Counted from the stretch's first letter, positions 19,498 to 63,060 are shown. The stretch is DNA of 64,000 nt from Candidatus Iainarchaeum sp. (GCA_023129115.1 JAGMCR010000002.1:32001-96000), one strand, 5' to 3'. The notes: generated from the sequence alone by a model not told the origin. Program-made: numbers and translations.

Positions 19498-19571
19498 AGA
19501 AGTGCTCCCCTTCCCTTTAGAAGTTCCCCCCATACTATAGCTTATGTCTTAACACGTATAAAAGGCTATGT

Positions 19572-42944: not shown

Positions 42945-43060
42945 CTGACCCTACGGTAGTAGAGCCTGCACCATAAAATTGTTGATGATTGCCTATAACG
43001 CTTTCGTTGCAGCCCTAACTCCTTGAATTTCCTAGGAAATCCGCGGAAACTGGAGGACGC

Positions 43061-43279
43061 TTAATAGAATTCTTCTTTTGGCTTTCCAGTCTGCTTGATT
43101 ATGTGCTTTATCACAAAAACAGTTATGGTTGTGTGGTGCGGCACTCACGTTGTCAACACTTTTTTCTTTGACACTTGTTTCTTGTAAGTGATGTGCTTGC
43201 TGGACCTGGCTTTCTTGAGGCCATTGTCCTTGAGTATGCCCTCGACCTTACGCCTTGACAGCTGGCGAAGCCCTGCCAT
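43061..43279 (-). pseudogene. hicA: HicA-family toxin pseudogene
   Basis: Read by hand: MAGLRQLSRRKVEGILKDNG...SSKHITY...VLTT*VPHH...IIKQTG; in-frame TGA at 43145-43147. Confidence 0.75.
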
Positions 43280-43345
43280 GATGGGCAACCTCCGGCAAAG
43301 AAATGGGTATGCTACTCAATGAAACAGAAACCGACATCATTGTTT

Positions 43346-43525
43346 TTAGGGTGTGGGCTTGGGTGTGTCCGGGTCTTTCATATACTCGTTAACCAATTCC
43401 GCCATATTTTCCTTTACCTCTTTCTCGGTTTTTCCTTGTGTGGCCACGTCAAGAACAGGGCAAGAAGCCACAAACCACTTATCCTCTTTAGTAACGATTA
43501 TTGGTAAAGGAATAGCTTGTTTCAC
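43346..43525 (-). pseudogene. hicB: HicB-family antitoxin, probably truncated by frameshift
   Basis: Read by hand: IVTKEDKWFVASCPVLDVATQGKTEKEVKENMAELV; stops at 59 aa while another frame continues to overlap the hicA start. Confidence 0.75.
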
Positions 43526-43596
43526 TGAAAATCACCCTCTGAAATAGGTTATCAAACCCGCGCTATTTAAAAGTATCCGCAAAAAAGAGGTGCTCC

Positions 43597-44250
43597 TTGG
43601 TCCTGCCAAAGTTATTAAAGAACCCCACACAATATTCTAGCGTGCCTGGAGATATCATCCCTGAAAAGAAGACTAAGACACAAAAAGCGATTAGGGCACT
43701 CTTTGCTTTTGGTGAGAAGCAGCGGGAGCTACCTTACGTTAAGACCAGCCGTCCAGGACACTTGGTTGCGCGGAGTATGAAGCGTGCTAACGAGCTGGTT
43801 GAACAAGCAACAACTATTTGGGAAGAAACGAAGGACAAGGAACAAAGCGGCAGGATTGGGCCGTGGGGAAGTGGGTTTAAGATAATTTACCCACAGGATT
43901 CTCGCCTTAGGGGTGAAGTGTTCCATGAGCTGAAGAGGATAACCCGCGACCTGAAAAGGGCGAGTTCGCAAAAACTTTCTGAAGAAGAACTGCAGGAGGA
44001 AGCTGCGCGGCTCAAGAATTTTTATACTCGGGGAATTCCATCCGGTCGCACGCCCGAAGCCGAGGCGAAGGCAGACGCTATGCTCACAGACGAAGAGAAA
44101 GCAATCCTAGGGGAACTCGGTTTGGACGAGGACAAGTACAACGAGCACGTCCAACACCTCGCCAGCGCCCTGGAGTCTTCACACGAGGACCTTTACGAGC
44201 TGATGGTACACCTTATAAAAGAAGGAAAAGAGGTAAAGCTGCTCAAATAA
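43597..44250 (+). CDS. Hypothetical protein
   Basis: 217-aa ORF with TTTAAA box and GAGGTG RBS upstream. Confidence 0.65.
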   Translation: MVLPKLLKNPTQYSSVPGDIIPEKKTKTQKAIRALFAFGEKQRELPYVKTSRPGHLVARSMKRANELVEQATTIWEETKDKEQSGRIGPWGSGFKIIYPQDSRLRGEVFHELKRITRDLKRASSQKLSEEELQEEAARLKNFYTRGIPSGRTPEAEAKADAMLTDEEKAILGELGLDEDKYNEHVQHLASALESSHEDLYELMVHLIKEGKEVKLLK

Positions 44251-44328
44251 CTCTTTTATGTGCAGACCCTCAATATAGTGTAAAAGCCCCACCCCGTTTT
44301 TTAAAGAATCCCGCACAACATTCTAACA

Positions 44329-44796
44329 ATGGCAAGAACACCTCAATGGATCAAAAACCTGGGCGGTCACGCAGGCGAGTTATACGTCGCGGCTGAACTA
44401 TCTAAACGTGGAATACCCAATGCATTGCTCCCCGAGAACTTTTCTGACGATGATATTTTGATTGCGCAGAAAGATGGAAGTGAAATTGGCTATATCCAAG
44501 TAAAGTCCTGTCACCCAAATCGTTCCGACTCCTTCATTCTTCGCTACACTGAAGAAGAGTGGACAAAAGCAAAAAGTAACGAGTACGTGGTTTTAGTGTA
44601 CTTGGGGACTCCCGAAGAAAACGAATCCCCACGTTATTGGATAACAACAAAGAAAAAAATGGGAAAAGCATGTGTTGAACACGGGGCACACGGAACCAAA
44701 AACTGGGAACGCCGCTTTTGGATGAAGACTATGGAATCAGACTACAAAAAATGGGAGAATAATTGGGGGCTCTTTAAGAAGTACCTTCCTAAGTGA
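44329..44796 (+). CDS. PD-(D/E)XK-fold nuclease-like protein
   Basis: AGELYVAAEL...DDILI...IQVKS. Confidence 0.8.
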   Translation: MARTPQWIKNLGGHAGELYVAAELSKRGIPNALLPENFSDDDILIAQKDGSEIGYIQVKSCHPNRSDSFILRYTEEEWTKAKSNEYVVLVYLGTPEENESPRYWITTKKKMGKACVEHGAHGTKNWERRFWMKTMESDYKKWENNWGLFKKYLPK

Positions 44797-44820
44797 TTAA
44801 AAAAAAATGGAGAGATTCGT

Positions 44821-45453
44821 TTGAAGAAAATTAGTGTATCTGAACTGACTTTTGCGCAAATACGCGCAGCCTCCAAAGAGTTCAGAAAGCGCGAGGAGAG
44901 GGATTCAATATACAAAATCACTACAAAGCTCGTGAACGAGGCATGGGCCAAGAAAGGCAAGGGATTCACTCTCGCCGATGCCATTAGCGTGCTACTACTC
45001 GTTTGGAACCAGGGGTTCTACCGCTACGGAAGACTCAACTTCACTAAGTTCGATAAAGCTATCAAGAAGAACAAGCCACTACTGGCAAAGTTTAGGAAGC
45101 GAAAAATCGCAAGCTTCACAGCAAAGGATGAAACAACAATCAAGAAGCTATTCAACGATTTACTTGAGGCCACGTCCATCAAAACGAGGAAACAGAAGAA
45201 AAAGATGGTCAGCCCAGTCAGCGTTGCCAAAGCACTCCACATGATGGCTCCCAGATTCTTCCCGTTATGGGACGGAGCCATCGCCGTTGGATGGGGCTGT
45301 CGATTCAACCGGGACAACGCTGCTGACAAGTACCTGAAGTTCATGAGGCAAAACAAGGAACTGATGGGAAAATACAGTGGCCGCGGGCTAACCTTAAAAA
45401 TGATTGATGAATGTAGTTACGCAATATACACCGCGGGATGGTATCCACGATAG
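44821..45453 (+). CDS. Hypothetical basic protein, possibly nucleic-acid modifying
   Basis: LLVWN...SVAKALHMMAPRFFPLWD motif; its 3' end is duplicated at 52323. Confidence 0.6.
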   Translation: MKKISVSELTFAQIRAASKEFRKREERDSIYKITTKLVNEAWAKKGKGFTLADAISVLLLVWNQGFYRYGRLNFTKFDKAIKKNKPLLAKFRKRKIASFTAKDETTIKKLFNDLLEATSIKTRKQKKKMVSPVSVAKALHMMAPRFFPLWDGAIAVGWGCRFNRDNAADKYLKFMRQNKELMGKYSGRGLTLKMIDECSYAIYTAGWYPR

Positions 45454-45611
45454 ACAGGTCATTTCCTAGGAACTTCCGCGGAAATGAGGTGTGTGAGGGG
45501 CAAAAACCCGTGTAGGCTCTACAGCCGTACGACTTGTTCCCTCCCGAGGCTCTGTATCTCTGGTGCCAGAGCGCAAGCTAAATCATTCTTTTTTTTGTGC
45601 ACTTGCCTTTG

Positions 45612-46208
45612 CTAAAGCGACTTCGCGAACTTGTCCGAGGTGGTCATCTTTGCGTACAGCGGCAGTATGTCCATCATCGCGTCGTAGTTGCTGTCGGTGA
45701 AGCCGCTGGTCGCGTCCTTCAGAAGGGTCACGTTGTATCCCTTGTTGGCCGCGCGCTTAACAGTCGTTGCGATGACGTGCTCGGTGCACTGCCCGCTGAT
45801 ATATACGTGGTCGACTCCGGCCGAACGCAGTACTAAATCGAGGTCGGTTCCCTCGAAGCCGTCAGAGCCGTAGTTGATGACGATTACATCGTCTTTCTTG
45901 GGCTCGAGCTCCTTGATGACCTTGGCATCCCAGCTGCCCACCAAAGCTTTGTTCGCGTCTTTGGCTCCCTGCATGAGGGGGTAGTACTGGTTCTTGGGCA
46001 TTTCAGGATAGCCTGGTCTCCACGCGATGTTGACGAAGACGGTCAGCATCTTCTTCCTTCGGGCTGCGGAAAGCGCCTTCTTCGCCTTGGGTATTGACTT
46101 GTTCTTCTTGATTTGGGGGTACAGCATCTTGCCCCAAACGCCTTTGGGGTGGGCCACACCGTTTTGCCAGTGTAGCATTAGCAAAGCAGATTTTTTGACA
46201 TTAACCAT
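45612..46208 (-). CDS. Isochorismatase-family (cysteine hydrolase fold) protein
   Basis: GFEGTDLDLVLRSAGV, ISGQCTE, GYNVTLLKDATS. Confidence 0.88.
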   Translation of the reverse strand: MVNVKKSALLMLHWQNGVAHPKGVWGKMLYPQIKKNKSIPKAKKALSAARRKKMLTVFVNIAWRPGYPEMPKNQYYPLMQGAKDANKALVGSWDAKVIKELEPKKDDVIVINYGSDGFEGTDLDLVLRSAGVDHVYISGQCTEHVIATTVKRAANKGYNVTLLKDATSGFTDSNYDAMMDILPLYAKMTTSDKFAKSL

Positions 46209-46259
46209 GATAATTCACCGAAAGCAAACAAGCTTCCGTGCAATAAAAACGTTTCGGTT

Positions 46260-46284
46260 GGGGTTCAATTCCCTCCCGAGGCTC
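46260..46284 (+). repeat. Longest tRNA-Thr 3' copy (25 bp, att-like), directly upstream of the integrase
   Basis: GGGGTTCAATTCCCTCCCGAGGCTC identical to 42921-42945. Confidence 0.95.
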
Positions 46285-46359
46285 CATTACTGCGTCAAGG
46301 AGCCCCTGCTCAATTCCGCACCAGTCTATAAATAGTCCTTTGAGCAGAGCCTCGGAGGC

Positions 46360-47529
46360 ATGAGGACTGACCCTTACAACACCGGCACGAAGCTAGTGAA
46401 TTGCCTTGAGCGGGTTAGGCAATCGCTTGACCTATGTAAAGCCAACAAGCGGCTGATTCTTGAGTTCCACGCCGAGGCCGTTGCCCGTGGCTTGTCGGAA
46501 AAGCGGTGCCTTAAGTACGTGAGTACTCTCCGCAACCTCGGAACCCAACTTGGAAAGCCCTTTAACAAGGCGGACAAGCACGACATCATTCGCTTGCTCT
46601 CTTGGCTTGAGTCAACCGCGTACAAGGAGTGGACGAAGCACGACTACAAAGTCATTCTGAAATCGTTTTACAAGTGGCTGAACGGTGGAGAAGAGTATCC
46701 AAAGGTTGTTTCGTGGGTAAAAACAGGGATGAAGAACGGCAACCACATGCTGCCCGAGGAATTGCTGACCGAGGAAGACGTGCGTGCTTTAGTTGAAGCG
46801 TGTACGAACCCGCGCGACAAAGCTTTTGTCCTCACGTTGTACGAGAGTGGCTGCCGAATAAGCGAGCTGCTGACGTTGCAGGTAAAGAGCGTGAGGTTTG
46901 ACGAGCACGGCTCAATCTTGCGAGTGACTGGGAAGACCGGTGACAGGCGCGTGAGGGTGATTTCCGCGGCTCCGGCAATCGCGTTGTGGCTCGACAACCA
47001 CCCCACAAGGAAAGGGCACTTGTTTTGCTCCTTGGATGGGACGGGCATCAACTACTCGACCGCTAACGTGCTGTTAAGGAGGCTTGCTAAGAAGGCAGGC
47101 ATTACGAAGCGTGTTAATCCGCACGGTTTCCGCCACGCCCGGGCCACGTCGCTCGCGAACAAGCTCACAGAAGCCCAAATGAAGGAGTTCTTTGGTTGGG
47201 CTCAAAGTAGCGAGATGGCGGCTGTGTACGTCCACTTGTTGGGGCGGGACGTGGACGATGCCCTGCTAAGCATTTACGGCGTGAAGCCACCCGAGGACGC
47301 TCGCAAGGAGCGTTTCGTGCCTAGGGCTTGTCCCAGGTGCAAGGAGACTAATTCTCCTGCTAGTAAATACTGTTGCAGGTGTGGCAGTGCGCTCGACCTC
47401 GCAACAGCGCTAGAGGCTGATGACAAGCACAAGGAAGCCGATGCATTGATGAACGAGCTCATCAAAGACGACAGGATAAAAGCGCTTCTATTGGAGCGGT
47501 TGGTTGCCATCCAAGCAGAGAATCATTAA
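46360..47529 (+). CDS. Tyrosine recombinase/integrase with C-terminal Zn ribbon (SNJ2-like archaeal family)
   Basis: ESGCRISE (R), GKTG (K), HGFRH (HxxR), FGW, VYVH (Y), CPRC...CCRC; catalytic set intact. Confidence 0.95.
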   Translation: MRTDPYNTGTKLVNCLERVRQSLDLCKANKRLILEFHAEAVARGLSEKRCLKYVSTLRNLGTQLGKPFNKADKHDIIRLLSWLESTAYKEWTKHDYKVILKSFYKWLNGGEEYPKVVSWVKTGMKNGNHMLPEELLTEEDVRALVEACTNPRDKAFVLTLYESGCRISELLTLQVKSVRFDEHGSILRVTGKTGDRRVRVISAAPAIALWLDNHPTRKGHLFCSLDGTGINYSTANVLLRRLAKKAGITKRVNPHGFRHARATSLANKLTEAQMKEFFGWAQSSEMAAVYVHLLGRDVDDALLSIYGVKPPEDARKERFVPRACPRCKETNSPASKYCCRCGSALDLATALEADDKHKEADALMNELIKDDRIKALLLERLVAIQAENH

Positions 47530-47996
47530 CCTTTTCGTTTGAGGTTGTTGTATATATTGAGTGGTTCAGCGCTCAAATTCTCGCGTTCCTGGCCTTGGTT
47601 CAACTGATTTTTTAGGAATTCAATAGCTGCCAAGTAGCTCATCGGGAGCGCATCAGAAGTGTTTTCTCCCCCTGTTCAGGAATCCACATTACGAAAAAAT
47701 TCGGATTTGAGAATGTTGTATTCTCTCTTGTATTAATGGGGCAGTTTTCGGTGCGGATTCTAAGGCGTTGCTAGTGATTGACCATTGTGTAATTAGGATT
47801 CTAATTATTCAGAAAGTAGGGGTTGTGTGAAGCTCGGGGGTGAATACTGACCCTGATGAGGGTTCTGCATTACGAAAAAATTGGGATTCGGAAGTTGGCC
47901 TCCTTTTAGTGATAGAAAATGGATTTGGCCTTAGTTCACGTTTAAACATAGGTTTTTATTTGAGGACTGCTTTTTTGGCTAAGGAGCGGATTGCTG

Positions 47997-48665
47997 ATGA
48001 CTGATACTTTAGTTGATGTTTTGCTGATGCCGAACATTATGGCACTATGGGTTCCAATAATCATAGCGGCCGCCTTAGTAATCCTAATGGGATTGGTTGT
48101 CCGCCACAAAAAAGTTTCTATATCTAAGTCTAAAAAATCGCCAGATAACAAAAAAGTTGCTTTCAGATCACTTGTGATTGTTGCAGTACTATCGTTGGTA
48201 TTTTTCTTTGTTGAACCCCAGATAATAAAAGGTCTCTCCACACCACTTTTAACAATCCCATTTAGTGTTGTCCCCGCTCTTCTACTCGGATTATTTTACA
48301 CTGGACTTCAATACACTCCCATAGAAATCAAATCAGACAAGAAGAAAGCGACGCTAACAGTTGATTTTATTACTATTAATCTATGCGCACTCTTCGCATT
48401 CTTGACATTGTTTAACTTCTCTCCTTATTTCCCCGGCGCGTTCACTAGCACGAGCAACATAGCAATCATTTTCATAATTGCGTTGGTACAGACTTTTTTG
48501 TTCTCGCTGATTGTGTTCGCTTCGGAAAAAGTAAAATTCATCAGACTAAAAAATTTCCTTGGGATTCCAAATTGGCTGATATGTGTTATACTCTTTATCC
48601 TGCCTTGGTTGTTTTTGATGTATGAAAAAGCTATCCCAGTGGTGGGTGGCCTCAGGACCCTATAA
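47997..48665 (+). CDS. Multi-pass membrane protein
   Basis: About six hydrophobic helices; AT-rich DNA. Confidence 0.7.
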   Translation: MTDTLVDVLLMPNIMALWVPIIIAAALVILMGLVVRHKKVSISKSKKSPDNKKVAFRSLVIVAVLSLVFFFVEPQIIKGLSTPLLTIPFSVVPALLLGLFYTGLQYTPIEIKSDKKKATLTVDFITINLCALFAFLTLFNFSPYFPGAFTSTSNIAIIFIIALVQTFLFSLIVFASEKVKFIRLKNFLGIPNWLICVILFILPWLFLMYEKAIPVVGGLRTL

Positions 48666-48756
48666 TCAAAAATGCCTAAATCGGCATTTGTTTAAACGTT
48701 TGGACGATATGTATTTATTCTGCAAGCGCTTTTTGTTTGAGTCGGGGTGTTCTTCA

Positions 48757-51570
48757 ATGAAGCGAATGTTAGATGCATCTAAGGGCTCAGTTATAGTGGT
48801 GGTTTTTATCCTACTCTTAATTGTTGGGGTTTATGCGTTTGCTCCGTGTCCTGTTTCTCCACCAGTAAACGAAGGTGACCCACTGCCAATACCTTGCTTT
48901 GAAGAAGGTATGTGCATGGGTGGTTGTTGCTGCTATGATGGTTATCTTCTTCTCGAAAGGAATACTACTGAAGAACAGCCCAGCGCGATTACAGGTATGA
49001 TGGTAGCAACCGCACCTTTAGAAGGCAATGCAATTGAGCCCCACAAAGTGGTTAGTTTGGTTGGTTTTGAAGGCTATGACAAGAATAGGGACAAGGTTGC
49101 GGATTCCATGCAGAACGGTGTTTACTTAGAGGGCGCTACAAAAGAACTATTCACTGTTGCTTTTGACCACAAACCAACAGAAGAAGACAAAAAACTGGTT
49201 AGAGATATGGGTGGGGAGGTTGTTTACGATTTCTCATTGATTTACGCTTTAACAGTTAGGATACAACCAACCAAAATAACTGAGTATGCAGCAGCCAATC
49301 CACATGTAGTTATCGTGAGTGACCCCCGTGTAACTAGATCACTGAAGATATACCGCACAGCAAAAGTAGTTCGTGTTCGACCTCTAGTTTGGGAAACCTA
49401 TGGCTACAATGGTAGCGGGGAAGTAGTCACAGTAATGGATAGTGGCGTAGATGACTCCCACGCAGATTTACAAGGCAAAATAAAAAACTGGATGGACTGC
49501 AATCCTGCAGGATGCACTACTATTGGTCAGACACTGCATGACAACGTGGGCCATGGAACGAGTATTGCGGGGATTATTGTGGGGTCTGGGACGCAGGTGG
49601 GTGGTTCTAGTGGAGTAGCCACAGTGAACATTATGATTCATAGCCGGTTTACGGGCGAAGGCGGAGAAGTATGGGGTGGCTATTTTTCAGTGGATACTGA
49701 TGATAACACCCATTCCATTGACGGAACCCTTAATTGGGAGGCGGCTGACGGGCAGGACAATTACACAATAAAAGTAACCAACTCTACAGGGCTACCAAAC
49801 GGTGTTATTGGGGACGAAACTTCCGATTCAGACCCCTTAACCTTAACCACCAACTCATTCACAGAAACCAGTGAAATCCAGTACAAGTTTTACGTTAGCG
49901 CAGAGAGTGGCAATGCACATAACAGCACTGATGAAGCCTATTTCGCGCAAATGAGTACACCTATTGAATCGGTGGGGGATAGTTATAACCTCATGAGGGG
50001 ACTGGCACCAGGTAGCGAGCTTGTTTCCGTGAAAGTTGTGCCAGATGATAATGACATAGCTCATTTATGGACTATGAATAATGCCTATGATTGGATTGGG
50101 TCTAATTCTGAATCAGATGGCGTTAAAGTGGTTTCCATTAGTTTGGGTGGGACAACCGCTGACCCTATTGAATCAAAAGTCATTAGTAACACGATAGACA
50201 AAGGGGTTCTGCCCGTTGCAGCAACAGGTAATGATAACGGTGTTATCGACTACCCTGCTAGGTATCCTGAAGTGCTTGCTGTGGGGGCGATTGACAGCGA
50301 TGGAGACGTGGCGGATTACAGTAATTACGGGAACTCAAGTGAAGGCTCTGAAAAATGGCCCGATGTTGTTGCTCCCGGTGGGTCAAGCTGGTTCACTTAT
50401 GAAAAATACCCTGTTTTAACACTCGACACAAACGACGCTGAGTGTGTGACGAACACAGGCCTAACTACATGCGAAAGTTTCTCTGAAGAATACACTAATG
50501 ACTCCATCTATGCGTACGGTACTTCCATGGCTGTCCCCCACGTATCCGCGATAGCTGCCTTGATTGCTGAGGCGAAGGGGAGTTGGACTTACAACTCTTC
50601 TACTGACCCGTTGTGGGTAAAAATGGTTATTTCGATGACGGCTTGGGAGACCAACGAAACCAACCGTGGTTCTAAAGACATCTATGAAGGCTATGGAGTA
50701 GTCGCTGCCGACGCGGCAATCGAAGCGGTTATCTTCAACCACACGCTTGGGGACATTGAGTCAGATACTTTTGGCTCGGGATTGACTGACAAGAAGGTGT
50801 GGGCCCGCGAAGTTTCGCCGGGAGACAAGGAAATTGATTTCACGCTGGTGGTGCCAAGCGGCGCGGACTACGACCTCTACCTTTACAACAATACTCCTGA
50901 CCAGTACGGCCAGCCACAGATACTGGACAATTCGACAACTGCTGCGACCGGCGGCACAGAAAGCATTACCTACAACTTTTCGGCGAGTCAGGAAGCGTAT
51001 TTGGTGGTGAAGTGGGTCAGCGGTAACGGAGCATTTACTTTGTCTAGTGTGGAAGACAAGGACAAAATGAGTTTGATTCAGGGTTGGAACCAGTTTTCGT
51101 TCCCGAAGCTTCCGGCGAACAAGACTGTGGCCAACGTGTTCTCTTCAATTAGTGGTAGTTATGACCGGATAGATGATTACATCGCTAACAACAAGTCGTG
51201 GCGGATTTACGACGTAGCTGCAATTGGCTATTCCATGACGTTAAGCAACATTGAGGGGGGCAGGTCTTATCGCATTCATATGAACCAGGCCGACACAATT
51301 GAGTTCAGCGGCACGGACGTGGCGCCAATCAATATCTCGCTTTATGAGGGCTGGAATTGGCTCGCTTGGCCAGGCGAGACGGAGGCAATCGCCAGTGCGT
51401 TGAGCTCAATCGACGGGAGCTACAACAGAATAGATGAACTCTACGCTGGGGAGTGGGAAATTTATGATAGCTCCATCCCCGATGAGTACGACCAATCCCT
51501 GGACTACATGAAAAGAGGCAGAGGGTACGTAATTCTCATGAACTCTAACGACACACTCGAGGTGAATTAG
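48757..51570 (+). CDS. Secreted S8 (subtilisin-like) serine protease with PPC-like and C-terminal repeat domains
   Basis: VMDSGVD, HGTSIAG, ATGN, GTSMAVPHV; N-terminal TM helix; two L..GWN repeats. Confidence 0.93.
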   Translation: MKRMLDASKGSVIVVVFILLLIVGVYAFAPCPVSPPVNEGDPLPIPCFEEGMCMGGCCCYDGYLLLERNTTEEQPSAITGMMVATAPLEGNAIEPHKVVSLVGFEGYDKNRDKVADSMQNGVYLEGATKELFTVAFDHKPTEEDKKLVRDMGGEVVYDFSLIYALTVRIQPTKITEYAAANPHVVIVSDPRVTRSLKIYRTAKVVRVRPLVWETYGYNGSGEVVTVMDSGVDDSHADLQGKIKNWMDCNPAGCTTIGQTLHDNVGHGTSIAGIIVGSGTQVGGSSGVATVNIMIHSRFTGEGGEVWGGYFSVDTDDNTHSIDGTLNWEAADGQDNYTIKVTNSTGLPNGVIGDETSDSDPLTLTTNSFTETSEIQYKFYVSAESGNAHNSTDEAYFAQMSTPIESVGDSYNLMRGLAPGSELVSVKVVPDDNDIAHLWTMNNAYDWIGSNSESDGVKVVSISLGGTTADPIESKVISNTIDKGVLPVAATGNDNGVIDYPARYPEVLAVGAIDSDGDVADYSNYGNSSEGSEKWPDVVAPGGSSWFTYEKYPVLTLDTNDAECVTNTGLTTCESFSEEYTNDSIYAYGTSMAVPHVSAIAALIAEAKGSWTYNSSTDPLWVKMVISMTAWETNETNRGSKDIYEGYGVVAADAAIEAVIFNHTLGDIESDTFGSGLTDKKVWAREVSPGDKEIDFTLVVPSGADYDLYLYNNTPDQYGQPQILDNSTTAATGGTESITYNFSASQEAYLVVKWVSGNGAFTLSSVEDKDKMSLIQGWNQFSFPKLPANKTVANVFSSISGSYDRIDDYIANNKSWRIYDVAAIGYSMTLSNIEGGRSYRIHMNQADTIEFSGTDVAPINISLYEGWNWLAWPGETEAIASALSSIDGSYNRIDELYAGEWEIYDSSIPDEYDQSLDYMKRGRGYVILMNSNDTLEVN

Positions 51571-51690
51571 AGGGGGATACTTGACCTGGTCAAGCTGTCC
51601 TCCCGGGGCTCTGACCCTACGGTAGTAGAGCCTGCACCAAACTATTTATAGAACTTTGAGCAGAAGCCCTTGCGATGGGCAGGATAAACC

Positions 51691-52260: not shown

Positions 52261-52322
52261 AACAACAAATGACTCAGTTCTAAAATAAAAACCTTTTTAT
52301 CCCTCTTAGAGTTATGTGCAAA

Positions 52323-52495
52323 GCCGTGGGCTAACCTTAAAAATGGTTGATGAGTGTAGTTACGCAGTATACACCGCGGGATGGTATCCATGATAGACAG
52401 GTCATTTCCTAGGAAGTTCCGCGGAAATGAGGTGTGTGAGGGGCAAAAAGCGGTGCAGGCTCTATAGCCGTACGAGCTGTTCCCTCCCGAGGCTC
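52323..52495 (+). repeat. 173-bp duplicate of 45380-45552 (ORF tail, right end and core)
   Basis: Ungapped alignment with scattered substitutions. Confidence 0.95.
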
Positions 52496-52649
52496 AGCGT
52501 CCTGGGGGGCGCAGCCCCCCACGAAGCCCATGACGTTGACACAAGTCAACGTCCAGTCCACGGGAAGAGTCCCCTCAGTAATACTGTACTAGCTGCTGCC
52601 GGGCGGCCTTGCGCCGCCCTCGTCTAACGTGCCGCCTGAGTTTCAGGCG
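52496..52649 (+). repeat. Structured non-coding element, full copy (ORF-less cassette)
   Basis: Hairpins GGGGGC-GCA-GCCCCC, GACGTTGAC-ACAA-GTCAACGTC, GGGCGGC-CTTGC-GCCGCCC and CGCCTGA-GTT-TCAGGCG, between two cores. Confidence 0.9.
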
Positions 52650-52661
52650 CTCCCGAGGCTC

Positions 52662-52831
52662 AGCGTCCTGGGGGGCGCAGCCCCCCACTACCCCGGGAAG
52701 CGCCCCCCCAGGTGAGTGGGTAAGAGCTCGCTTCCGCTCGCGGTTTTTGTCTCTGGGAATCGCAGATTCCCAAGCCTAACGTGCTGTACCGTGAATCCCA
52801 ACGGATTTGCGGTTGTCCTGAGTTTCAGGCG
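52662..52831 (+). repeat. Structured non-coding element, variant copy
   Basis: Same AGCGTCCTGGGGGGCGCAGCCCCCC start, CTAACGTGC motif and CCTGAGTTTCAGGCG end; different internal hairpins. Confidence 0.88.
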
Positions 52832-53101
52832 CTCCCGAGGCTCTGACCCTACGGTAGCAGAGCCCGCTTCACCCCAAGCATGAGGCCGGACTTGCGCATA
52901 AGCTTCCTAGGGGTTTGTGGGGTTTGGGCCAATAAATTTATCAGGTTGTGGCATTCCTCGCTGAAGTATTGTCCCGCTGTCACTAAAAAACCCGTCCATT
53001 CCCTACAATAACGCTTAAAATATTGCCGTGGGGCGCATTCAGTCACGTTTATAAACTATAACATGTTAGATATATCGGTACCGATATTAAAAGGTTTTGT
53101 T

Positions 53102-53599: not shown

Positions 53600-53603
53600 T
53601 GTT

Positions 53604-54926
53604 ATGGAAAAATACGACGCAATTGTTGTGGGGTGTGGCATAAGCGGGCTGCTCGCGGGCCTTGCGCTTGCCAAGGAAGGAAAGAGTGTGCTAATGCTCG
53701 AGAAGGAAGACAAAGTTGGTGGCGCGTGCAGGTCTTACGACGTTGACGGCTTCGTGGTCGACACCGGGCCGCATGTGATTACTGGGCGGGGGAATGGGCC
53801 AACCCAATTGCTGATAGACAAGTATTTTGACGTGGTGCCGAAGTTCATTGAGAGCAGAAAATATTTCCTGCGGTTTGACGGCAAGTTATACGCTTTCCCT
53901 TGGACGATTCCGGCTTGGCTATCGTTCCCACCGTTCTCAGTCGAAGACAGGCTCATCATTGTCCAGGTGATGTTCAAGTTGTTGGCAGACTATGCCTCTG
54001 GCAAAGGCTTGGGGGATAAAGTGGTGTCTGATTACACGGCGGGCCATGAGCTCTCGGGAAGGGCGCTGCAGTTCATTGATTGCATGTGCCTGTTTTTGAC
54101 GGGCGTTTGCATGGAGGAAACGCCCGTGAGCCGAATCCTTTCCGGGGGAAGGAGCAAAAACAAGACAAAAGCGGAAAAAATAAAAGAGATTTTGGTTGAA
54201 AACGGGAAGACCCATTACTATCCGCGTGGGGGGATCCAAACTATTGTTAACTCTGTATTGCAGTCCCTCCCGAAGAACGCCGGGATTCACAAGAGCGAAG
54301 AAGCAACCAAAATCGTGGTCAGTGGCGGGCGTGTTTCTGGTGTCGCCACGGACAAAGGCGAGTACGCCACGAAGGTAGTGGTTTACGCTGGACCGAACAA
54401 GCTCCTTCCCGGCTTGGTGGAACTGCCCCAAGAGTACATCCAAAAATTCAGGGGCTTGAAGCAAGCGAGGACGCTGACGCTGTGGCTCGGGCTAAATAAA
54501 AAATACTTCGCAGAAGTTGGGACAGAGCTTTGGACCGAAACAAAAAAGCCTTGCTGGGCCGTCCCAACATCCAATTTTGATTCTGCACTCGCCCCGACGG
54601 GGAAGCACTTGGTGGGCTTCGGCTTCGTGCTCGCGGAAGATGAGCAGGTGACCGACGACAACATTGACGACTATGTCAAAGTAGTCGAGGAAGTGTTCCC
54701 GGGCATAAGGGAACACATCGAGATGACCCATTACCAAGTGCTGGTTGCCGAGCAGGCAGCCAACGCAAAAGACAATTTCTTCAGCGGGGTCAAGCTGCCG
54801 GTCGATGGGCTGTACGCGGTCGGCACTGACGTCGACAGGCGGAGCATGGGCGTGACGAGGGCCGCGTACTCCGTAGTCTCGTTGATTGAAGCCCTAAAAC
54901 AAGGCGGTTTTGTTACGAAGGTGTGA
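53604..54926 (+). CDS. Phytoene-dehydrogenase-family FAD oxidoreductase
   Basis: GCGISG, VGGAC, VDTGPH, YPRGGIQ, LAPTGKHL, GLYAVG. Confidence 0.88.
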   Translation: MEKYDAIVVGCGISGLLAGLALAKEGKSVLMLEKEDKVGGACRSYDVDGFVVDTGPHVITGRGNGPTQLLIDKYFDVVPKFIESRKYFLRFDGKLYAFPWTIPAWLSFPPFSVEDRLIIVQVMFKLLADYASGKGLGDKVVSDYTAGHELSGRALQFIDCMCLFLTGVCMEETPVSRILSGGRSKNKTKAEKIKEILVENGKTHYYPRGGIQTIVNSVLQSLPKNAGIHKSEEATKIVVSGGRVSGVATDKGEYATKVVVYAGPNKLLPGLVELPQEYIQKFRGLKQARTLTLWLGLNKKYFAEVGTELWTETKKPCWAVPTSNFDSALAPTGKHLVGFGFVLAEDEQVTDDNIDDYVKVVEEVFPGIREHIEMTHYQVLVAEQAANAKDNFFSGVKLPVDGLYAVGTDVDRRSMGVTRAAYSVVSLIEALKQGGFVTKV

Positions 54927-54930
54927 AAAA

Positions 54931-56028
54931 ATGAAGTACAAAAAAATAGTTTTCCCGCGGGACGGTGCCGCCCATGACAACGTTATTGAGTGGTGGTACT
55001 TTAACGGGCACCTGAAGGACGGGAATGGCAATGGGTATGCCTTCATGGACTGCCTGTTCAAGGCAAAGCCCAAAGAAGTGAAACTTCCTTTTTTGAAAAA
55101 GATTCCACTCAAAAACGCTTATTTCGCCCACTCCCTTTTGTCTGACATCAAGGACAACGTGTTTTATTCAAGCGTGCAGCCCCTGAGCATACTCTCGAGG
55201 GACAGCTTTTCAAAGCCCTTGTTTTTCGTGAATTACTCCCACCCCTCTTTGGGCGGCTACCTGAATTACGAAATCGAGGAGATTGACGGGTTCAAGTATA
55301 GAATCAAGTCCGAGTTCTTTGACTTGACCTTGAGCTCGACCAAGAAGCCGCTGCTTGAGGGCGGGCGCGGGTTCATTGACTTGAATTCAAAGCAAACGTT
55401 TTACTACTCGCTGACAAACCTCGAGACAGAGGGATACGTCACTGTCAACGGCAAGCGAATCAAGGTAAAAGGCAAGTCCTGGATGGACCACCAGTGGGCC
55501 GACGTCCCGTACTCGAAGGACAAGTGGAGCTGGTTTTCAATCCAATTGGACAACAACACGGAAATGGTTTGCTTTGAGTATGGCGACAAGAAAAAGAAGA
55601 CTTATCTCGCGAGCATTTCGTACGCGAACGGAAGGGTCGCCCACGCCAGTGACTTATCACTAACCCCATTAGGCCAGGTATGGGAGAGCAAGAGAACTGG
55701 CGCCAAGTATCCCCTTTCATGGAGGATTCAAGTCCCGTCAAAAAGAATTGACCTCGTGGTGAGCCCCTTAATGAAAGAACAGGAAATAATTTTTGGGCCA
55801 ATCAACTACTGGGAGGGGCCGTTAAAAGTAACGGGAAAAGTGAACAACAAAAAAGTGGCTGGAAAAGGATTTTCAGAGCTTGTCGGCTACCCGACAACAA
55901 AGTCTTTTGTTGAGTTTTATGAGCCAGAACTAAGGAAAATCGAGAAAATAGTTAAAAGAGACTTAAGCGAATGGGTGGGTCATACGATTAGTGGAAAGCC
56001 GGGGTTTGCCGCGGATCGCAGGAAGTGA
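54931..56028 (+). CDS. CrtC/AttH lipocalin-like hydratase family protein
   Basis: H...IEWWYFNGHL, YYSLT, WMDHQW, WSWFSIQL, YWEG. Confidence 0.85.
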   Translation: MKYKKIVFPRDGAAHDNVIEWWYFNGHLKDGNGNGYAFMDCLFKAKPKEVKLPFLKKIPLKNAYFAHSLLSDIKDNVFYSSVQPLSILSRDSFSKPLFFVNYSHPSLGGYLNYEIEEIDGFKYRIKSEFFDLTLSSTKKPLLEGGRGFIDLNSKQTFYYSLTNLETEGYVTVNGKRIKVKGKSWMDHQWADVPYSKDKWSWFSIQLDNNTEMVCFEYGDKKKKTYLASISYANGRVAHASDLSLTPLGQVWESKRTGAKYPLSWRIQVPSKRIDLVVSPLMKEQEIIFGPINYWEGPLKVTGKVNNKKVAGKGFSELVGYPTTKSFVEFYEPELRKIEKIVKRDLSEWVGHTISGKPGFAADRRK

Positions 56029-56034
56029 GGTTGT

Positions 56035-56868
56035 TTGGGCTTTGGTGGTTTCTTGCTTCACTTGCGGCCGCTGTCGTGGCCACTTGTCGCACTGCAAGTC
56101 TTGACGGGGTTCGTGCTCGCCGGCGGCAACACTGTCTCTCTTGAGGTCTTGTTAGGTTTCTTTGTCATCGTTGTCTGTATGAACGGGGGAACACTGGCGT
56201 TCAACTCTTACTTCGACAGGGACGGTGGAAATGTGGGGTGGCTGGACAACCCACCCAAAACAACTAAGCAAACATATTACTTGTCGCTCGCGCTGATGGT
56301 ATTTGGTGTGCTCGCCGCCTTGCTGGTGTCCCATGAATTTTTCTATTTGGCTTCCGCATCTTTCGTTGTTAGCGTTGCTTATTCACATCCTTGGTTCAGG
56401 CTCAAGTCGGTGCCACTGGCAGACGCCATTTGTAGTGGCGTGGGTTACGGGGTGCTCATGTTTCTTGGGGGTTGGGTACTCGCGTCACCAGTCTTGACTG
56501 CCAAGGCCGGGGTCGTGTGCGTGGGAATGTTCCTGGCGTTCATGGCTGGGGTTCCATTGACCCAAATATATCAAATGCGTGAAGACAAAAAGAGGGGTGA
56601 TAGGACCACTGCATTGGCCTTGGGACCGGACAAATCAAAGTGGATGTTTTACTTCTTTGGCACGCTTTCTGTAGCCGTGTTGTTGTTTGCTGTTATGGAG
56701 GGGTTCTTGGGGAAACTTGCGCTACTGGCGGGCGTGCCTTTATTCTGGCTGGCGTTACAAGTACGGAACATCAAATCATTCAAGCACAAGCAAAAAGTTT
56801 ATGAGGCATACGTCGTGGTTGTTGTTGTGGATGTGGTTATCATTCTTTCAGAACTCGTTCCAGTGTAA
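56035..56868 (+). CDS. UbiA-family prenyltransferase
   Basis: LRP, FNSYFDRD, YSHPWFRLK, EDKKRGDRT. Confidence 0.88.
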   Translation: MGFGGFLLHLRPLSWPLVALQVLTGFVLAGGNTVSLEVLLGFFVIVVCMNGGTLAFNSYFDRDGGNVGWLDNPPKTTKQTYYLSLALMVFGVLAALLVSHEFFYLASASFVVSVAYSHPWFRLKSVPLADAICSGVGYGVLMFLGGWVLASPVLTAKAGVVCVGMFLAFMAGVPLTQIYQMREDKKRGDRTTALALGPDKSKWMFYFFGTLSVAVLLFAVMEGFLGKLALLAGVPLFWLALQVRNIKSFKHKQKVYEAYVVVVVVDVVIILSELVPV

Positions 56869-57002
56869 CACACCCCCTTTCCGCGGAAGCTTCCCCGGAA
56901 ATGACTTGGGTGTGGCTGATTTTGGGCGCAGGCTCTAGAGCCATACGAGCTGTTCTCCCCCGAGCTCTTTTATACTTCTTTTGACTAAAATTGTTTACTC
57001 TT

Positions 57003-58058: not shown

Positions 58059-58130
58059 GCCCAATCCCTCCCGGGGCTTTCCGGGGGAGGTGGGCAACGC
58101 AAAGCTTAAATATTAGAAATGCGTACTATA

Positions 58131-58237: not shown

Positions 58238-58462
58238 CAGCGCTTTCTGTTGTTTCAACTGTGTATGGACCTTAGTTCTCACGCTTCATTTCCGCGGAAC
58301 TTCCTAGCCGCAGGATTTATAGCCGTACGAGCTGTTCCCTCCCGAGGCTCTCAGACCACGTCAAGGAGCCCCCGCTCAATTCCGCACCGGTTTACATGCC
58401 TGTTTATAAAGGTTTACGATATATCGTACACCTTTATATAATAGTTCAAACACCGATTAAGC

Positions 58463-59653: not shown

Positions 59654-59695
59654 AAAAATGCTCCTTGACGTGGCCAAGCCGCCCTCCCGGGGCTC

Positions 59696-59722
59696 AGCGT
59701 CCTGGGGGGCGCAGCCCCCCCA
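59696..59722 (+). repeat. 5' fragment of the structured element serving as the left end of the DNase cassette
   Basis: AGCGTCCTGGGGGGCGCAGCCCCCC directly after the core. Confidence 0.85.
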
Positions 59723-59776
59723 CTGGGCGGTTCGGCACGCGCGGGGTTTATTAACCTTCTTTTCGTTGGCTGTGCA

Positions 59777-60607: not shown

Positions 60608-60646
60608 TGGGCTCCAAGAAGTGAATCCCTCCCAAGGCTCCATCTC

Positions 60647-60837
60647 AGCGTCCTTAGGGGGAGCGCAGCTCCCCCTGGCCCAGACGAACAACAACCGAAC
60701 ATCCTGTGGGGGATGTCCGGTATCCTGCGGGATGTACGTCATACCCTGGGAAGCCTCACCCCCTCAGTAATCCTGTACTAATCTGTCTCTTGGGGCCTTG
60801 TGCCCCAAAGCCTAACGTGCCAGCTGAGTTTCAGCTG
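60647..60837 (+). repeat. Structured non-coding element, third full copy
   Basis: AGCGTCC...GGGGGAGC-GCA-GCTCCCCC...CCCTCAGTAATCCTGTACTA...TTGGGGC-CTTGT-GCCCCAA...CTAACGTGC CAGCTGA-GTT-TCAGCTG. Confidence 0.88.
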
Positions 60838-60944
60838 AATCCCTCCCGAGGCTCTCATTCTATGGTAGTAGAGCCTGCGCCAAAGTGTCTTGCAAGTTGA
60901 TTAGCAGCAAAAGCCTGACACAATTTTCCGAGCTTGGAACACTT

Positions 60945-62864
60945 CTATTTGGAGTCTCCTAGCACTTGGTGGTAAAAGTTGGACTCCCGGGCCAGTGCAT
61001 CCACTTCGTTTTTCTTGACCCTAAAGCCGTGTGTTTCGCCTTCGTATTCCACGTATTCGTGCCTCACTCCTTTTTCTTCCAGTGCCCGAACCACTTCCCT
61101 GGAGCACTCGGGGGTGACAACCTTGTCATCACTACCCTGGAAAAGAATCATGGGGTTTTTCAACGCTTCCAAGTGATAAATGGGAGAACGGTCTTTGAAC
61201 ACCTCTCTTCCCTTGGAAAGTGTTGTTCCCACCAGGTTTTCAATGTACCGTGACTCGAATTTGTGAATTTGTTCTTCTAAAGTGATTAGGTTGCCGATGC
61301 CGTAGTAACTAGCTCCCACTGCAAACAAGTCAGGATACTGGGTCATCATCCTTTGCACTAGGTACCCTCCTGCACTCCCTCCCCTGATGGCAACCCTGGA
61401 CCCATCTACTTGTCCCTTTTTTATCAAGTGCTTCACGGCGTTGGCCACGTCCTCGGCGTCAACCACGCCCCAGGAGGATGGGAGCTTGTCCCTGTACTTC
61501 CTGCCGTAGCCCGTGCTTCCCCGGTAGTCCACGTCCACCACGGCAAAGCCGGACGAAGTCCAGAATTGCGTGACAAAGGAAAACGAGGCGTGGGTATTGC
61601 TCGTGGGGCCTCCATGCGCCACTACCAACAACGGCGGTTTTTCTCCCTCCATGGGCAGGTATCCGCTGTTTTTAGGGGGGTAAAAAAAGGCGTGTGCCTG
61701 TTCTCCGCCTCCAGTGGAGTAAGTTATGAACTGGGGGAGGGAAACGTCTTCCGGCTTCATTTCCAGCGAAGAACCCTCCCTTAACACATCCAGCTTCTTG
61801 GACTCCATGCCAAAGGCGTACACGCTGGCAACGCTGGTACTGCTGGCCCCAACGAAAAATATGCTGCCTTCCTTGTCTGTTTTCAGGTGGTGGTACGTGT
61901 TCAGACCTGTTTCCACGCGTGACACAGATTTGTCTTCAGGGTCAACAAATACCAAGTGCTCTGTTCCTTCTTTGGTCATCACGGCTACTATCCTGCCGTC
62001 GGGAAGGAAGTCGTAAGTGCTCTGCCCGAAGGCCCACAACGGCCTGCCGAACTCGGCTTGTTCACAGGTAATCCTATTCACTTCGCCGTCCCAAGCGTAC
62101 AGGTTCCACCAATTCTCAGGCGAAAAAGGGTCTTCCGCCACCCTGTCCTTGGCATAATACAGCTTGTCCTCTTGGTTGAAGCGGGGCAGGCAAATAGCGC
62201 AGTCTTTCCCCCCCTCCACTTTTTTTACGTCACGGACGCTGTCCTTCCTCCACTTGCCCATCATTAACTCCGTGCCATCCCACGGCATGTTGGGATGGTT
62301 CCACTGGAGCCACGCCACGTATTTTCCCGAAGGCGAAAAGACAGGACTAGCATAGAAATCGCTGCCCCGGGCAACGATGCGGGGCTCCACCGCTTTTTCA
62401 GAACGCGCGTCCAGCACGGCTAGAAGATTCTCGTTTTCCTTGTCTCCGCACTCTTTTTCGTAGACAAACAAAAGGCTTTTTCCGTCAGGGCTTACTGTGA
62501 GCGAGGCATACTTACCCAAGGACCCGTCTTTGTTTGTTGGGGGGGTGAGGGGCCTGGCTGCAGAAGAGCTTGGGGGTTGATGGTAAATGCGTTGGTCCTG
62601 GAAGTTGGAGAAGTAAACATTCCCCCCAAAAACCGCGTACGCTCCTCCACCGTACTCGTGAACCCTGTTCCTGGCGCTGAAACCAGGGGGGGTGACGTCC
62701 CCCCTGTTTTTGGAGACTACTACGCAACGCCCGCCTTCGGCCGGCCGCATTTCCAGCCAGTAGGCGTCACTGCCGTCGGTTTGAATCTCGCTCAGTCTGA
62801 CCACGTCAGAAAATACTTGCTGGGGGGAAATGGCGGACTGCCATTGAAGAAACGGTTTTTGCAT
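60945..62864 (-). CDS. S9 prolyl oligopeptidase-family peptidase
   Basis: HGGP, DYRGSTGYG, GGSAGG, QGSDD, ETHGF. Confidence 0.93.
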   Translation of the reverse strand: MQKPFLQWQSAISPQQVFSDVVRLSEIQTDGSDAYWLEMRPAEGGRCVVVSKNRGDVTPPGFSARNRVHEYGGGAYAVFGGNVYFSNFQDQRIYHQPPSSSAARPLTPPTNKDGSLGKYASLTVSPDGKSLLFVYEKECGDKENENLLAVLDARSEKAVEPRIVARGSDFYASPVFSPSGKYVAWLQWNHPNMPWDGTELMMGKWRKDSVRDVKKVEGGKDCAICLPRFNQEDKLYYAKDRVAEDPFSPENWWNLYAWDGEVNRITCEQAEFGRPLWAFGQSTYDFLPDGRIVAVMTKEGTEHLVFVDPEDKSVSRVETGLNTYHHLKTDKEGSIFFVGASSTSVASVYAFGMESKKLDVLREGSSLEMKPEDVSLPQFITYSTGGGEQAHAFFYPPKNSGYLPMEGEKPPLLVVAHGGPTSNTHASFSFVTQFWTSSGFAVVDVDYRGSTGYGRKYRDKLPSSWGVVDAEDVANAVKHLIKKGQVDGSRVAIRGGSAGGYLVQRMMTQYPDLFAVGASYYGIGNLITLEEQIHKFESRYIENLVGTTLSKGREVFKDRSPIYHLEALKNPMILFQGSDDKVVTPECSREVVRALEEKGVRHEYVEYEGETHGFRVKKNEVDALARESNFYHQVLGDSK

Positions 62865-63060
62865 TTTTCTCACCGGTATACTACATCCCTCGAAAACACA
62901 TTTATAATTTAGTCTTCCGGAATATAATGGTGGGGTACTCCTTAGCCTAGCCAAGCAGCCCTCCCGAGGCTTCTATCTATTAACGCCTCAAAAAAGCCAT
63001 AAATCCTAACCGCACGCCACTGTTCTTATCATCTTTGTGCCCTCGTGCTAGACATTACCC

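Follow-up and report, generated by a model that had tools for sequence, protein, structure and literature searches.

A tandem array of tRNA-anchored units with core-flanking inverted repeats in a Candidatus Iainarchaeum genome: probable accretion of integrative elements at tRNA-Thr(CGT)

The genome of Candidatus Iainarchaeum sp. carries, behind its tRNA-Thr(CGT) gene, a 28-kb array of 15 tandem units (K1-K15) bounded by 16 direct copies of a short core that is the 3' end of this tRNA gene. The first 21 kb of the array occupy positions 42933-64000 of the stretch of DNA analysed here, a 64,000-nucleotide segment (GCA_023129115.1, JAGMCR010000002.1:32001-96000) hereafter referred to as the window. 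Fourteen of the cores lie within the window [Table 1] and two beyond it, at C12:99202 and C12:103056 of the same genome. Some of the units end in long inverted repeats of two families, A and B, which come to flank the core when the two ends of a unit are joined. On balance, we regard it as probable that the array has been built by the tandem accretion of tRNA-targeting integrative elements and that these repeats are the arms of their attP sites, acting as duplex binding sites.

The array behind tRNA-Thr(CGT) and its integrase

The boundaries of the units are direct copies of the last 10-24 nt of tRNA-Thr(CGT), the identity to the tRNA extending from 10 nt (K5, K6) up to 24 nt (K2), and the units so delimited, by the core alone, measure 166 to 5327 bp. 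A search of the window with the last 13 nt of the tRNA gene, CCTCCCGAGGCTC, allowing up to two mismatches, returned 14 matches where 1.97 were expected (maximum of 5 in 100 shuffled sequences); 13 of these map to the plus strand between positions 42933 and 62972. The array is an insertion, the corresponding site being unoccupied in another genome of the genus (G002), where the orthologous HD-domain gene and tRNA-Thr(CGT) are followed by no further copy of the core over 38 kb downstream. A more distant relative (G005) encodes an integrase 84-85% identical to that of K3 and, about 5 kb downstream of it, a family B right arm and a core, beyond which comes the TTTTATATT flank also seen at the end of the array in the genome under study.

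The order of the units rests on an assembly through repeats of 28-170 bp, exactly where the public unitigs break. The runs listed as containing the stretch are three DNA runs of one study, in the form of contigs only, and no RNA run; depth in the likely source run is even over all units (17-21x). In run X3, contigs part directly behind the cores at 42944 and 46287, which hints weakly that related strains have different neighbouring sequences there. A permissive Rfam search of positions 42000-64000 returned tRNA only.

The cores at 51599, 58067 and 59683 carry a GGGG variant that matches tRNA-Thr(TGT) (C4:21358-21430) rather than tRNA-Thr(CGT); going by this variant, the units concerned may earlier have resided at, or become adapted to, the other threonine tRNA. 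Three further Thr-type cores, accompanied by a left arm of family A and a right arm that is degenerate, are found at C13:141287-143619 (minus strand), where ARAGORN places no tRNA gene next to them. This set may represent a displaced or decayed array.

The tyrosine recombinase of K3 provides the only match to PF00589 (Phage_integrase) in the genome, which is 88.6% complete. From its sequence the protein looks intact: the open reading frame (ORF) is uninterrupted and the match (5e-24) spans profile positions 3-168 of 172, and stretches of the translation are putative catalytic motifs. The best model is that of the archaeal XerA proteins (131 bits, below the equivalog cut-off of 220), which are also the closest solved structures; the integron integrase model TIGR02249 scores 46.8 bits against a cut-off of 265, and the match to the IntI4 structure spans residues 135-199 only. 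The C-terminal CxxC...CxxC motif gives a weak double-zinc-ribbon match, no N-terminal arm-binding domain is recognisable, and the gene starts 75 nt past the core. Relatives on genome contigs share 25-84% identity with it, mostly 38-54%, and the titles of these contigs name Iainarchaeum, Micrarchaeota, Aenigmatarchaeota, Undinarchaeota, Thermococci, Archaeoglobus, Hydrothermarchaeota and Methanococcoides. Of 34 loci with a related integrase (L058-L091), 14 have the start of its gene 42-266 nt past a tRNA gene of the same orientation, the tRNAs being various. This position and the breadth of the archaeal titles point to a widespread clade of tRNA-associated archaeal integrases. The related integrase of one complete genome (G033) has no convincing flanking repeats and no tRNA within 19 kb. 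Among five other genomes of the same family, PF00589 has matches in two, both K3-like, and no chromosomal XerA-type recombinase was found in the six family genomes (G000-G005). The PF00589 matches correspond to an element-borne integrase in G000 and G005 and to a fragment in G001, with none in G002, G003 and G004 (98% complete).

In the scheme that we think probable, elements would integrate one after another through a tyrosine-recombinase crossover within the last 10-24 nt of tRNA-Thr(CGT), and would then decay, recombine or undergo deletion to leave the 15 core-bounded units. K3 alone still encodes an integrase; the other units are att-flanked and integrase-less, probably in the manner of cis-mobilizable elements (CIMEs) or tycheposons, and for any movement would depend on an integrase acting in trans or on membership of a composite. 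K1, K4 and K10 are CIME-like in this sense, having matched ends and no recombinase. Tandem integration at one site is outlined for archaea in a section of PMC8371274, and parts of that review, of PMC5704250 and of a preprint (bioRxiv 10.1101/2020.12.28.424599) describe tandem integration, the loss of the integrase after integration and att-flanked CIMEs.

Inverted repeats of families A and B

An earlier note, made from this DNA alone, had proposed that the units end in paired inverted repeats of three families (A, B and C) which, on circularisation, would fold into a long bulged stem with most of the core in the loop, different sequences preserving one architecture that recalls the single-stranded substrates of integron attC and CTXphi attP. 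The end sequences that it quoted are all present where it placed them, and the left arms of K1 and K4 are identical over 28 of 28 nt, with the two variants listed in Table 1. Circular junctions were rebuilt in silico from the right 35 nt, the core and the left 35 nt of each unit and folded with DNA parameters; fold z-scores refer to 200 dinucleotide shuffles and inter-arm duplex energies to 300 shuffles of the left arm. Local alignment was applied to arms of 80 nt with mononucleotide shuffles of the left arm, for elements outside the array as well.

Cognate right and left ends are significantly complementary in four of the 15 units. Two of these, K1 and K4, belong to family A and two to family B, namely K10 and, with a weaker signal, K3. 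The inter-arm duplex reaches -18.7, -22.2 and -20.7 kcal/mol in K1, K4 and K10, respectively, with none of 300 shuffles as good, and -15.3 kcal/mol in K3 (p=0.003), the other 11 units giving p=0.13-0.93. Local alignment agrees (p=0.000 for K1, K4 and K10, 0.025 for K3, at least 0.135 for the other 11). The junctions of K10 (z of -5.5), K4 (-4.9), K1 (-3.7) and K3 (-2.7) fold more stably than shuffled controls, and so do those of K12 (-2.9) and K5 (-2.2), the stability of family C junctions residing in local hairpins; the others lie between -1.3 and +1.4. The long bulged stem is predicted for K1, K3, K4 and K10; the other 11 units, those of family C included, show no cognate inverted repeat. 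Within family A, the ends of K1 and K4 are imperfect reverse complements as claimed, and across units the K7 right arm pairs with the K13 left arm. The 14-bp perfect inverted pair of family B stands in K10, whereas among its proposed variants K3 is weaker and the right arm of K13 is degenerate.

A matrix of all right against all left arms displays the family structure over a background of unrelated pairs averaging -8.9 kcal/mol (standard deviation 3.4), and its best pairing joins two different units, K7 by its right arm and K13 by its left (-23.4 kcal/mol). That these are perfect partners with K8-K12 between them suggests later insertions into a once-contiguous A2-type junction. K4 shares with K1 the left arm and about 170 bp of the right end, including the 3' end of a gene, and on this account looks like a derivative. 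Where a repeat is present its distances to the core are similar on the two sides (10/6, 9/5, 28/32, 0/4, 9/8 and 8/2 nt), and in the A and B units of the array the inverted repeats start 5-10 nt inside the ends.

Families A and B were encountered in this genome only, plus single sites in G003, G004 and G005. The right-arm A pattern has four matches in IMG/VR, all unrelated by their flanks, and the left-arm A pattern more than 117, too unspecific to be of use; a 21-nt degenerate right-arm A pattern has 23 matches in JGI metagenome contigs, with unrelated flanks throughout. A junction of right arm A, core and left arm B occurs three times, at 58307-58390 of the window, at C12:99170-99240 and at one locus of another genus (L244; G003:C123), a recurrence that suggests either a preferred order or a composite A+B unit moving as one. 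The family A unit of G004 (L243; G004:C12:15495-18508) has no integrase; it contains overlapping ORFs at 1692-2189 and 2171-2932 (165 and 253 aa), which may be an AbiE-type antitoxin/nucleotidyltransferase pair.

The arrangement also recurs outside the array with unrelated sequence. Of seven elements from other archaea with a related integrase and both att copies within reach, L080 (p=0.000; a perfect repeat of 17 bp, at distances of 28 and 32 nt from the core), L083 (0.023) and L059 (0.037; its att pair may bound a neighbouring unit rather than the integrase unit) have the core-centred repeat, L066 is marginal (0.077) and L075, L089 and L061 give values of at least 0.3. The idea of one architecture behind differing sequences is supported by these three elements, with a marginal fourth, and is not supported by 11 of the 15 units, family C among them.

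Several features of the arms are suggestive of duplex protein-binding sites. Eight aligned left arms of families A and B are homologous in layout and share an invariant GAGCC, the inverse of the GGCTC of the core, 17-21 nt past the core; in K3, K4 and the G004 unit it is followed by a common TATA-like block, which in K3 precedes the integrase gene. The right arms of K1 and K4 contain a double palindrome, TTTCCTAGGAA-TTCCGCGGAAA, of a kind typical of protein sites, with partial copies at 43039, 56879 and 58290, and in K3 the GTCAAG of the right-arm palindrome recurs a third time in the left arm. In the predicted K4 hairpin, moreover, about half of the core is unpaired. We propose that the A and B inverted repeats would be the P and P' arms of attP in two related element families, lying roughly symmetrically about the crossover core in the excised circle, where they probably serve as paired duplex sites for the integrase or an accessory factor and so assemble the recombination complex around the core.

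A number of observations weigh against this proposal. Neither this genome nor the five others of its family yielded an integrase specific to family A, so that one integrase may serve arms of differing sequence, which is not what long repeats acting as sequence-specific sites would lead one to expect. The cognate repeat is not significant in 11 of the 15 units and three of the seven outside elements and thus appears unneeded for residence in the array. The spacing between repeat and core varies among elements (0-4, 5-10 or 28-34 nt), a poor fit to a fixed protein geometry. Among the contigs of the three runs, no excision product or circle was seen at the cores; the listed joints, none of which counts as one, have short sides (20-33 nt) or fall in family C repeats, and one, from 43600 to 51585 (run X3, side of 56 nt), starts off-core. 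Lastly, two findings are more naturally explained by base pairing. Three family A positions are altered on both arms together between subfamilies: relative to K4, the pair that the K7 right arm forms with the K13 left arm has C:G for T:A in the 13-bp helix and A:T for G:C in the second helix, both compensated, and a third position is G:C in the G004 unit (left arm near C12:16982-17008, right arm 19543-19570), C:G in K1, T·G in K4 and G·G in A2. The best duplexes of eight pairs (K1, K3, K4, K10, K7 right/K13 left, L080, L083 and L066) contain 12 G·T pairs on the tRNA-sense strand and two on the other, small counts that are partly shared by descent and of which five of the 12 come from one G/T-rich element.

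These findings bear on the possibility that right arm, core and left arm fold as a single strand into a bulged hairpin that the recombinase reads by its shape, as IntI reads attC or XerCD the attP(+) of CTXphi, in which case one integrase could move cassettes with unrelated ends. The fold stabilities of K1, K3, K4 and K10, the double-sided changes, the G·T bias, the core-centred repeats of unrelated sequence in L080, L083 and L059 and the fact that K3-type integrases are the only ones in genomes of the family all speak for it. Tyrosine recombinase cleavage, however, needs duplex half-sites, and in attC and CTXphi attP(+) the cleavage points lie in the stem, whereas the K4 fold places eight core bases out of 13, CCTCCCGA, in a loop of 12 nt and leaves GGCTC as the sole paired part of the core. 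None of the 14 array-contiguous junctions is self-complementary (-4.2 to -13.1 kcal/mol, as for unrelated pairs, against -18.7 to -23.4 for the significant A and B pairs and -15.3 for K3), which would make hairpin-based excision from the array impossible. There is no inter-arm stem in family C and eight other units, and Pfam scans of 17 ORFs from the 11 coding units of the window (three without a family; K14 and K15 lie beyond it) detected no Rep, relaxase or filamentous-phage gene and none for rolling-circle replication, conjugation or a single-stranded DNA phage. The modest G·T counts and the conservation of GAGCC likewise tell against a fold-based site. A section of the review PMC8371274 states that XerA binds stem-looped att sites weakly, a statement for which no matching passage was found in the paper it cites. 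Taken together, we find recognition of a folded strand quite doubtful. Very doubtful, too, is the further notion of a tRNA-anchored integron analogue in archaea, in which one XerA-like zinc-ribbon integrase, as the sole tyrosine recombinase of the lineage, would move integrase-less cassettes with ends of differing sequence. These ends would fold on the tRNA-sense strand into a hairpin with the core at its tip, to be recognised by shape and a short GGCTC/GAGCC signature, and the same machinery would carry miniature hairpin-ended elements to many tRNA genes. The compensated changes and the absence of a second integrase from six related genomes nevertheless keep the folded-strand idea alive.

Alternatively, the repeats may act outside recombination. 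In an excised circle, the joined arms could form an RNA hairpin upstream of the integrase promoter, comparable to lambda sib, existing only when the ends are joined and thereby providing state-dependent control; or the ends could pair in single-stranded DNA to promote precise, recombinase-independent deletion between direct cores by slippage, as in Tn10 and Tn5. The G·T excess is on the strand that is sense for tRNA and integrase, the joined arms would lie just upstream of the integrase gene in K3 and in the tRNA-side relatives, and slippage makes use of precisely this geometry, in which direct repeats enclose inverted ones. Archaeal termination, on the other hand, needs no hairpins, slippage accounts for loss and not for insertion, and units without repeats persist equally in the array, all of which renders such a role rather improbable. 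That the repeats are functionless leftovers, for instance of a palindromic duplication at att formation, and the units inert debris, is also unlikely. The 11 units without repeats, the many degenerate ends (left arm of K7, right arm of K13, core c7) and the even depth would suit it; not so the perfect repeats of 13-17 bp in four independent sequence families (A, A2, B and L080), their symmetric placement about the core, the double-sided changes or the 28-nt identity of the left arms of K1 and K4.

Table 1. Coordinates and content of the features of the array in the window.
Feature	Position	Strand	Basis or remark
tRNA-Thr(CGT), chromosomal attachment site	42872..42945	+	ARAGORN; Rfam tRNA, 70.7 bits
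Core c0, tRNA 3' end, CCTCCCGAGGCTC	42933..42945	+	core search
Core c1, K1 end	45540..45552	+	core search; exact
Core c2, K2 end	46272..46284	+	core search; exact, tRNA identity 24 nt
Core c3, K3 end	51599..51611	+	core search; 1 mismatch, GGGG variant as in tRNA-Thr(TGT)
Core c4, K4 end	52483..52495	+	core search
Core c5, K5 end	52649..52661	+	core search; identity over CCCGAGGCTC only
Core c6, K6 end	52831..52843	+	core search
Core c7, K7 end	56955..56967	+	degenerate, CTCCCCCGAGCTC
Core c8, K8 end	58067..58079	+	core search; 2 mismatches
Core c9, K9 end	58338..58350	+	core search
Core c10, K10 end	59683..59695	+	core search
Core c11, K11 end	60628..60640	+	core search
Core c12, K12 end	60842..60854	+	core search
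Core c13, K13 end	62960..62972	+	core search; array continues past window
Tyrosine recombinase of K3, 389 aa	46360..47529	+	PF00589; XerA-like, C-terminal CxxC...CxxC zinc ribbon
Left arm A of K1	42946..42973	+	
Left arm A of K4	51612..51639	+	identical to that of K1, then TATA-like block as upstream of integrase
Left arm A variant of K7	52844..52871	+	4 differences
Left arm A2 of K13	60855..60882	+	5 differences; perfect partner of K7 right arm
Right arm A of K1	45509..45539	+	
Right arm A of K4	52452..52482	+	13-bp perfect and 6-bp inverted repeat with 51612-51639
Right arm A2 of K7	56925..56955	+	
Right arm A variant of K9	58307..58337	+	
Left arm B of K3 (integrase unit)	46290..46322	+	
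Left arm B of K10	58356..58388	+	first 14 nt (58356-58369) a perfect inverted repeat
Right arm B variant of K3	51576..51598	+	contains CTTGAC-CTG-GTCAAG
Right arm B of K10	59660..59682	+	inverted repeat 59660-59673
Degenerate right arm B of K13	62937..62959	+	
Double palindrome TTTCCTAGGAA-TTCCGCGGAAA, K1 right arm	45462..45484	+	candidate accessory-protein site
Double palindrome TTTCCTAGGAA-TTCCGCGGAAA, K4 right arm	52405..52427	+	
Left end C of K5	52496..52520	+	local G6/C6 hairpin
Left end C of K6	52662..52686	+	
Left end C of K11	59696..59720	+	
Right end C of K5	52624..52649	+	local hairpin GCCTGA-GTT-TCAGGC
Right-end C hairpin of K6	52817..52829	+	
Right end C of K12	60812..60837	+	hairpin variant AGCTGA-GTT-TCAGCT
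K1 content			three ORFs (one with sub-threshold DUF6308 match) and weak antitoxin-like small ORF
K2 content		-	isochorismatase
K3 content	46285..51611		integrase, membrane protein, 982-aa subtilase
K4 content		-	TFIIB-repeat fragment
K5, K6, K9, K12 content			non-coding
K7 content			PadR, amine-oxidase-type flavoprotein, CrtC-like protein, UbiA prenyltransferase
K8 content			DUF7118
K10 content			AAA_14/DUF4143 ATPase
K11 content			endonuclease/exonuclease/phosphatase-family protein
K13 content		-	S9 peptidase

Family C miniature elements

Family C is a separate kind of element, made up of miniature hairpin-ended units beside many tRNA genes of the genus. Its units are 166-214 bp long, non-coding and provided with a local hairpin at each end. 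The strings CAGGCGCT and AGCGTCCTG, which the earlier note had seen as a stem around core c5, flank that core without pairing between the arms, CAGGCG being the 3' strand of a local right-arm hairpin with its own covariation; the junctions of K5, K6 and K12 accordingly form two local hairpins (inter-arm z of about 0, p=0.44-0.56). The 25-nt left end C and the right-end hairpin are present on many contigs, often directly after a tRNA gene and followed by a repeat of that tRNA's 3' end, and 13 of 38 tRNA genes have a downstream copy of their own last 13 nt (at most one mismatch), 10 of them within 300 nt. In the right-end module, consisting of CTAACGTGCC and the hairpin, 25 of 44 modules have a stem of at least 6 bp (6-8 bp). 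Its sequence occurs in 12 variants, among which pair changes are compensated and T·G recurs on one strand, as though selection acted on the structure of tRNA trailers in RNA or single-stranded form. Rfam has no family for the right-end C copies within the window, and family C was found in three genomes of this genus only, 13 genomes of the order having been searched.

Elements of this type are found, for example, at C2:19404-19741, C5:68761-69031, C4:6895-7222 and C12:40022-40270 and, in the window, at 52496-52843 and 60641-60854. They consist of a few hairpin modules in shuffled order, the same end modules occurring with different tRNA cores, and neither a fixed attP core nor a target duplication of fixed length explains this variation well. 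In two other genomes, repeats of the 5' end of tRNA-Thr flank short upstream inserts (L057, G001:C5; L056, G004:C17:1-250, where the repeat covers 41 nt including the upstream region), which indicates that insertion in this lineage also takes place at the 5' side of the tRNA. The tRNA-Thr of G004 was missed by ARAGORN without its intron mode and so appears to be intron-bearing.

Inverted repeats flanked by direct repeats, insertion at a tRNA 3' end, and the presence of family C at many tRNAs, each with its own 3'-end repeat, might also call to mind transposons with terminal inverted repeats (TIRs), of which the core would be the target-site duplication, as in casposons at tRNA 3' ends. The genome encodes no Cas1 and no Y1 transposase (four TnpB-like ORFs are located elsewhere in it), the repeated segment is not of fixed length within the array, the inverted repeats begin inside the ends rather than at them and a tRNA-associated tyrosine integrase is at hand. 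This origin is therefore most improbable, and for families A and B it is already largely refuted.

Unit cargo, comparison with known systems and significance

The genes of the array are carried on both strands. Those of K7 (53063-56868) include, besides PadR and UbiA prenyltransferase genes, a flavoprotein of the amine-oxidase/phytoene-desaturase type and a CrtC-like two-lipocalin protein, and by their predicted families make up a carotenoid-modification-like set on a cassette of a DPANN-type genome. In K1, two small adjoining ORFs at 43145-43525 (minus strand) code for 59 and 47 aa; the former has sub-threshold antitoxin-like Pfam matches only (PHD_like, 19.6 bits; UPF0150, 13.6 bits), and the latter, which has no Pfam match, may be HicA-like; the pair may be an addiction module. 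The 189-aa ORF of K4 (51691-52260, minus strand) has a single TFIIB cyclin repeat (23.7 bits, at the cut-off) and is, as judged from this repeat, a partial homologue of transcription factor B.

In its organization the array invites comparison with the composites of integrative and conjugative, integrative and mobilizable and cis-mobilizable elements of streptococci. For these, parts of PMC5704250 describe composite structures located at the 3' end of a tRNA gene, internal att sites that are chimeric, and decayed units in which attL and attR persist although the integrase has been lost. The present host, by contrast, is a DPANN-type archaeon, its 15 units mostly hold one to four genes or none, with no conjugation genes, no other tyrosine recombinase was detected in the lineage, and long symmetric inverted repeats flank the core, which form no part of the CIME description in those parts of PMC5704250. 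Tycheposons of Prochlorococcus islands, as presented in portions of the preprint (bioRxiv 10.1101/2020.12.28.424599), likewise combine cargo elements, tyrosine recombinases and integration at tRNA genes with a partial tRNA copy as sole separator, scattered remnants and partial tRNAs, and accessory-metabolism cargo. These cyanobacterial elements are defined there by their own integrase and replication modules, whereas most units here are without any mobility gene, and the same portions make no mention of an inverted-repeat architecture; the resemblance of the array is functional only.

Integrons (for those of archaea, see bioRxiv 10.1101/2022.02.06.479319) share with the array small, mostly single-gene cassettes, a recombinase of the XerA/IntI-like fold and imperfect palindromes of differing sequence at the recombination point. 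An attC is, however, contiguous in the array and recombines at its edge, in the outer R' box, whereas here the palindrome is split across the unit and the core is central and about half looped; the integrase lacks IntI features and lies inside the array, in its third unit; genes occupy both strands (K2, K4 and K13 on the minus strand); and the anchor is a tRNA gene rather than attI. The array is accordingly not an integron, there being no IntI, no contiguous attC palindrome and no intI/attI at one end with co-oriented cassettes.

The single-stranded genome of CTXphi folds so as to recreate a duplex dif-like site with its cleavage sites in the stem, and elements that use Xer in this way have in common with the array two inverted segments able to fold into a site and an Xer-like recombinase. 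In the array, nothing in the scanned units points to a single-stranded stage, integration is directed to the 3' end of a tRNA gene and, as the K4 fold illustrates, no duplex site with cleavage in the stem is recreated. The analogy with attC and CTXphi drawn in the earlier note is thus contradicted by the half-looped core, the array junctions that are not self-complementary and an integrase that is not IntI, and no gene of the scanned units suggests a single-strand stage. Also comparable is the heterobivalent attP of the lambda type, which, according to a section of PMC8371274, has a short core of tRNA identity and arms of repeated motifs on both sides, required on the element side only; the arm repeats of the array differ in being long, nearly perfect and symmetric, and the K3 integrase in lacking a recognisable N-terminal domain for arm binding and having a C-terminal zinc ribbon instead.

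Few ways of acquiring genes are known for DPANN archaea, whose genomes are tiny. In the present case a 28-kb stack of accessory genes, among them a subtilase, an S9 peptidase, a carotenoid-type gene set, a nuclease, an isochorismatase and a toxin-antitoxin-like pair, has come to lie behind one tRNA gene of a 1.25-Mb genome whose close relative is without it, and tRNA-anchored accretion can thus build a store of cassettes with a single integrase. Should the symmetric arms turn out to be required, they would offer a simple, testable site of recombination for this integrase family, which is widely distributed among uncultured archaea. Were it true that they act as folded single strands, structure-guided cassette capture would extend beyond integrons.

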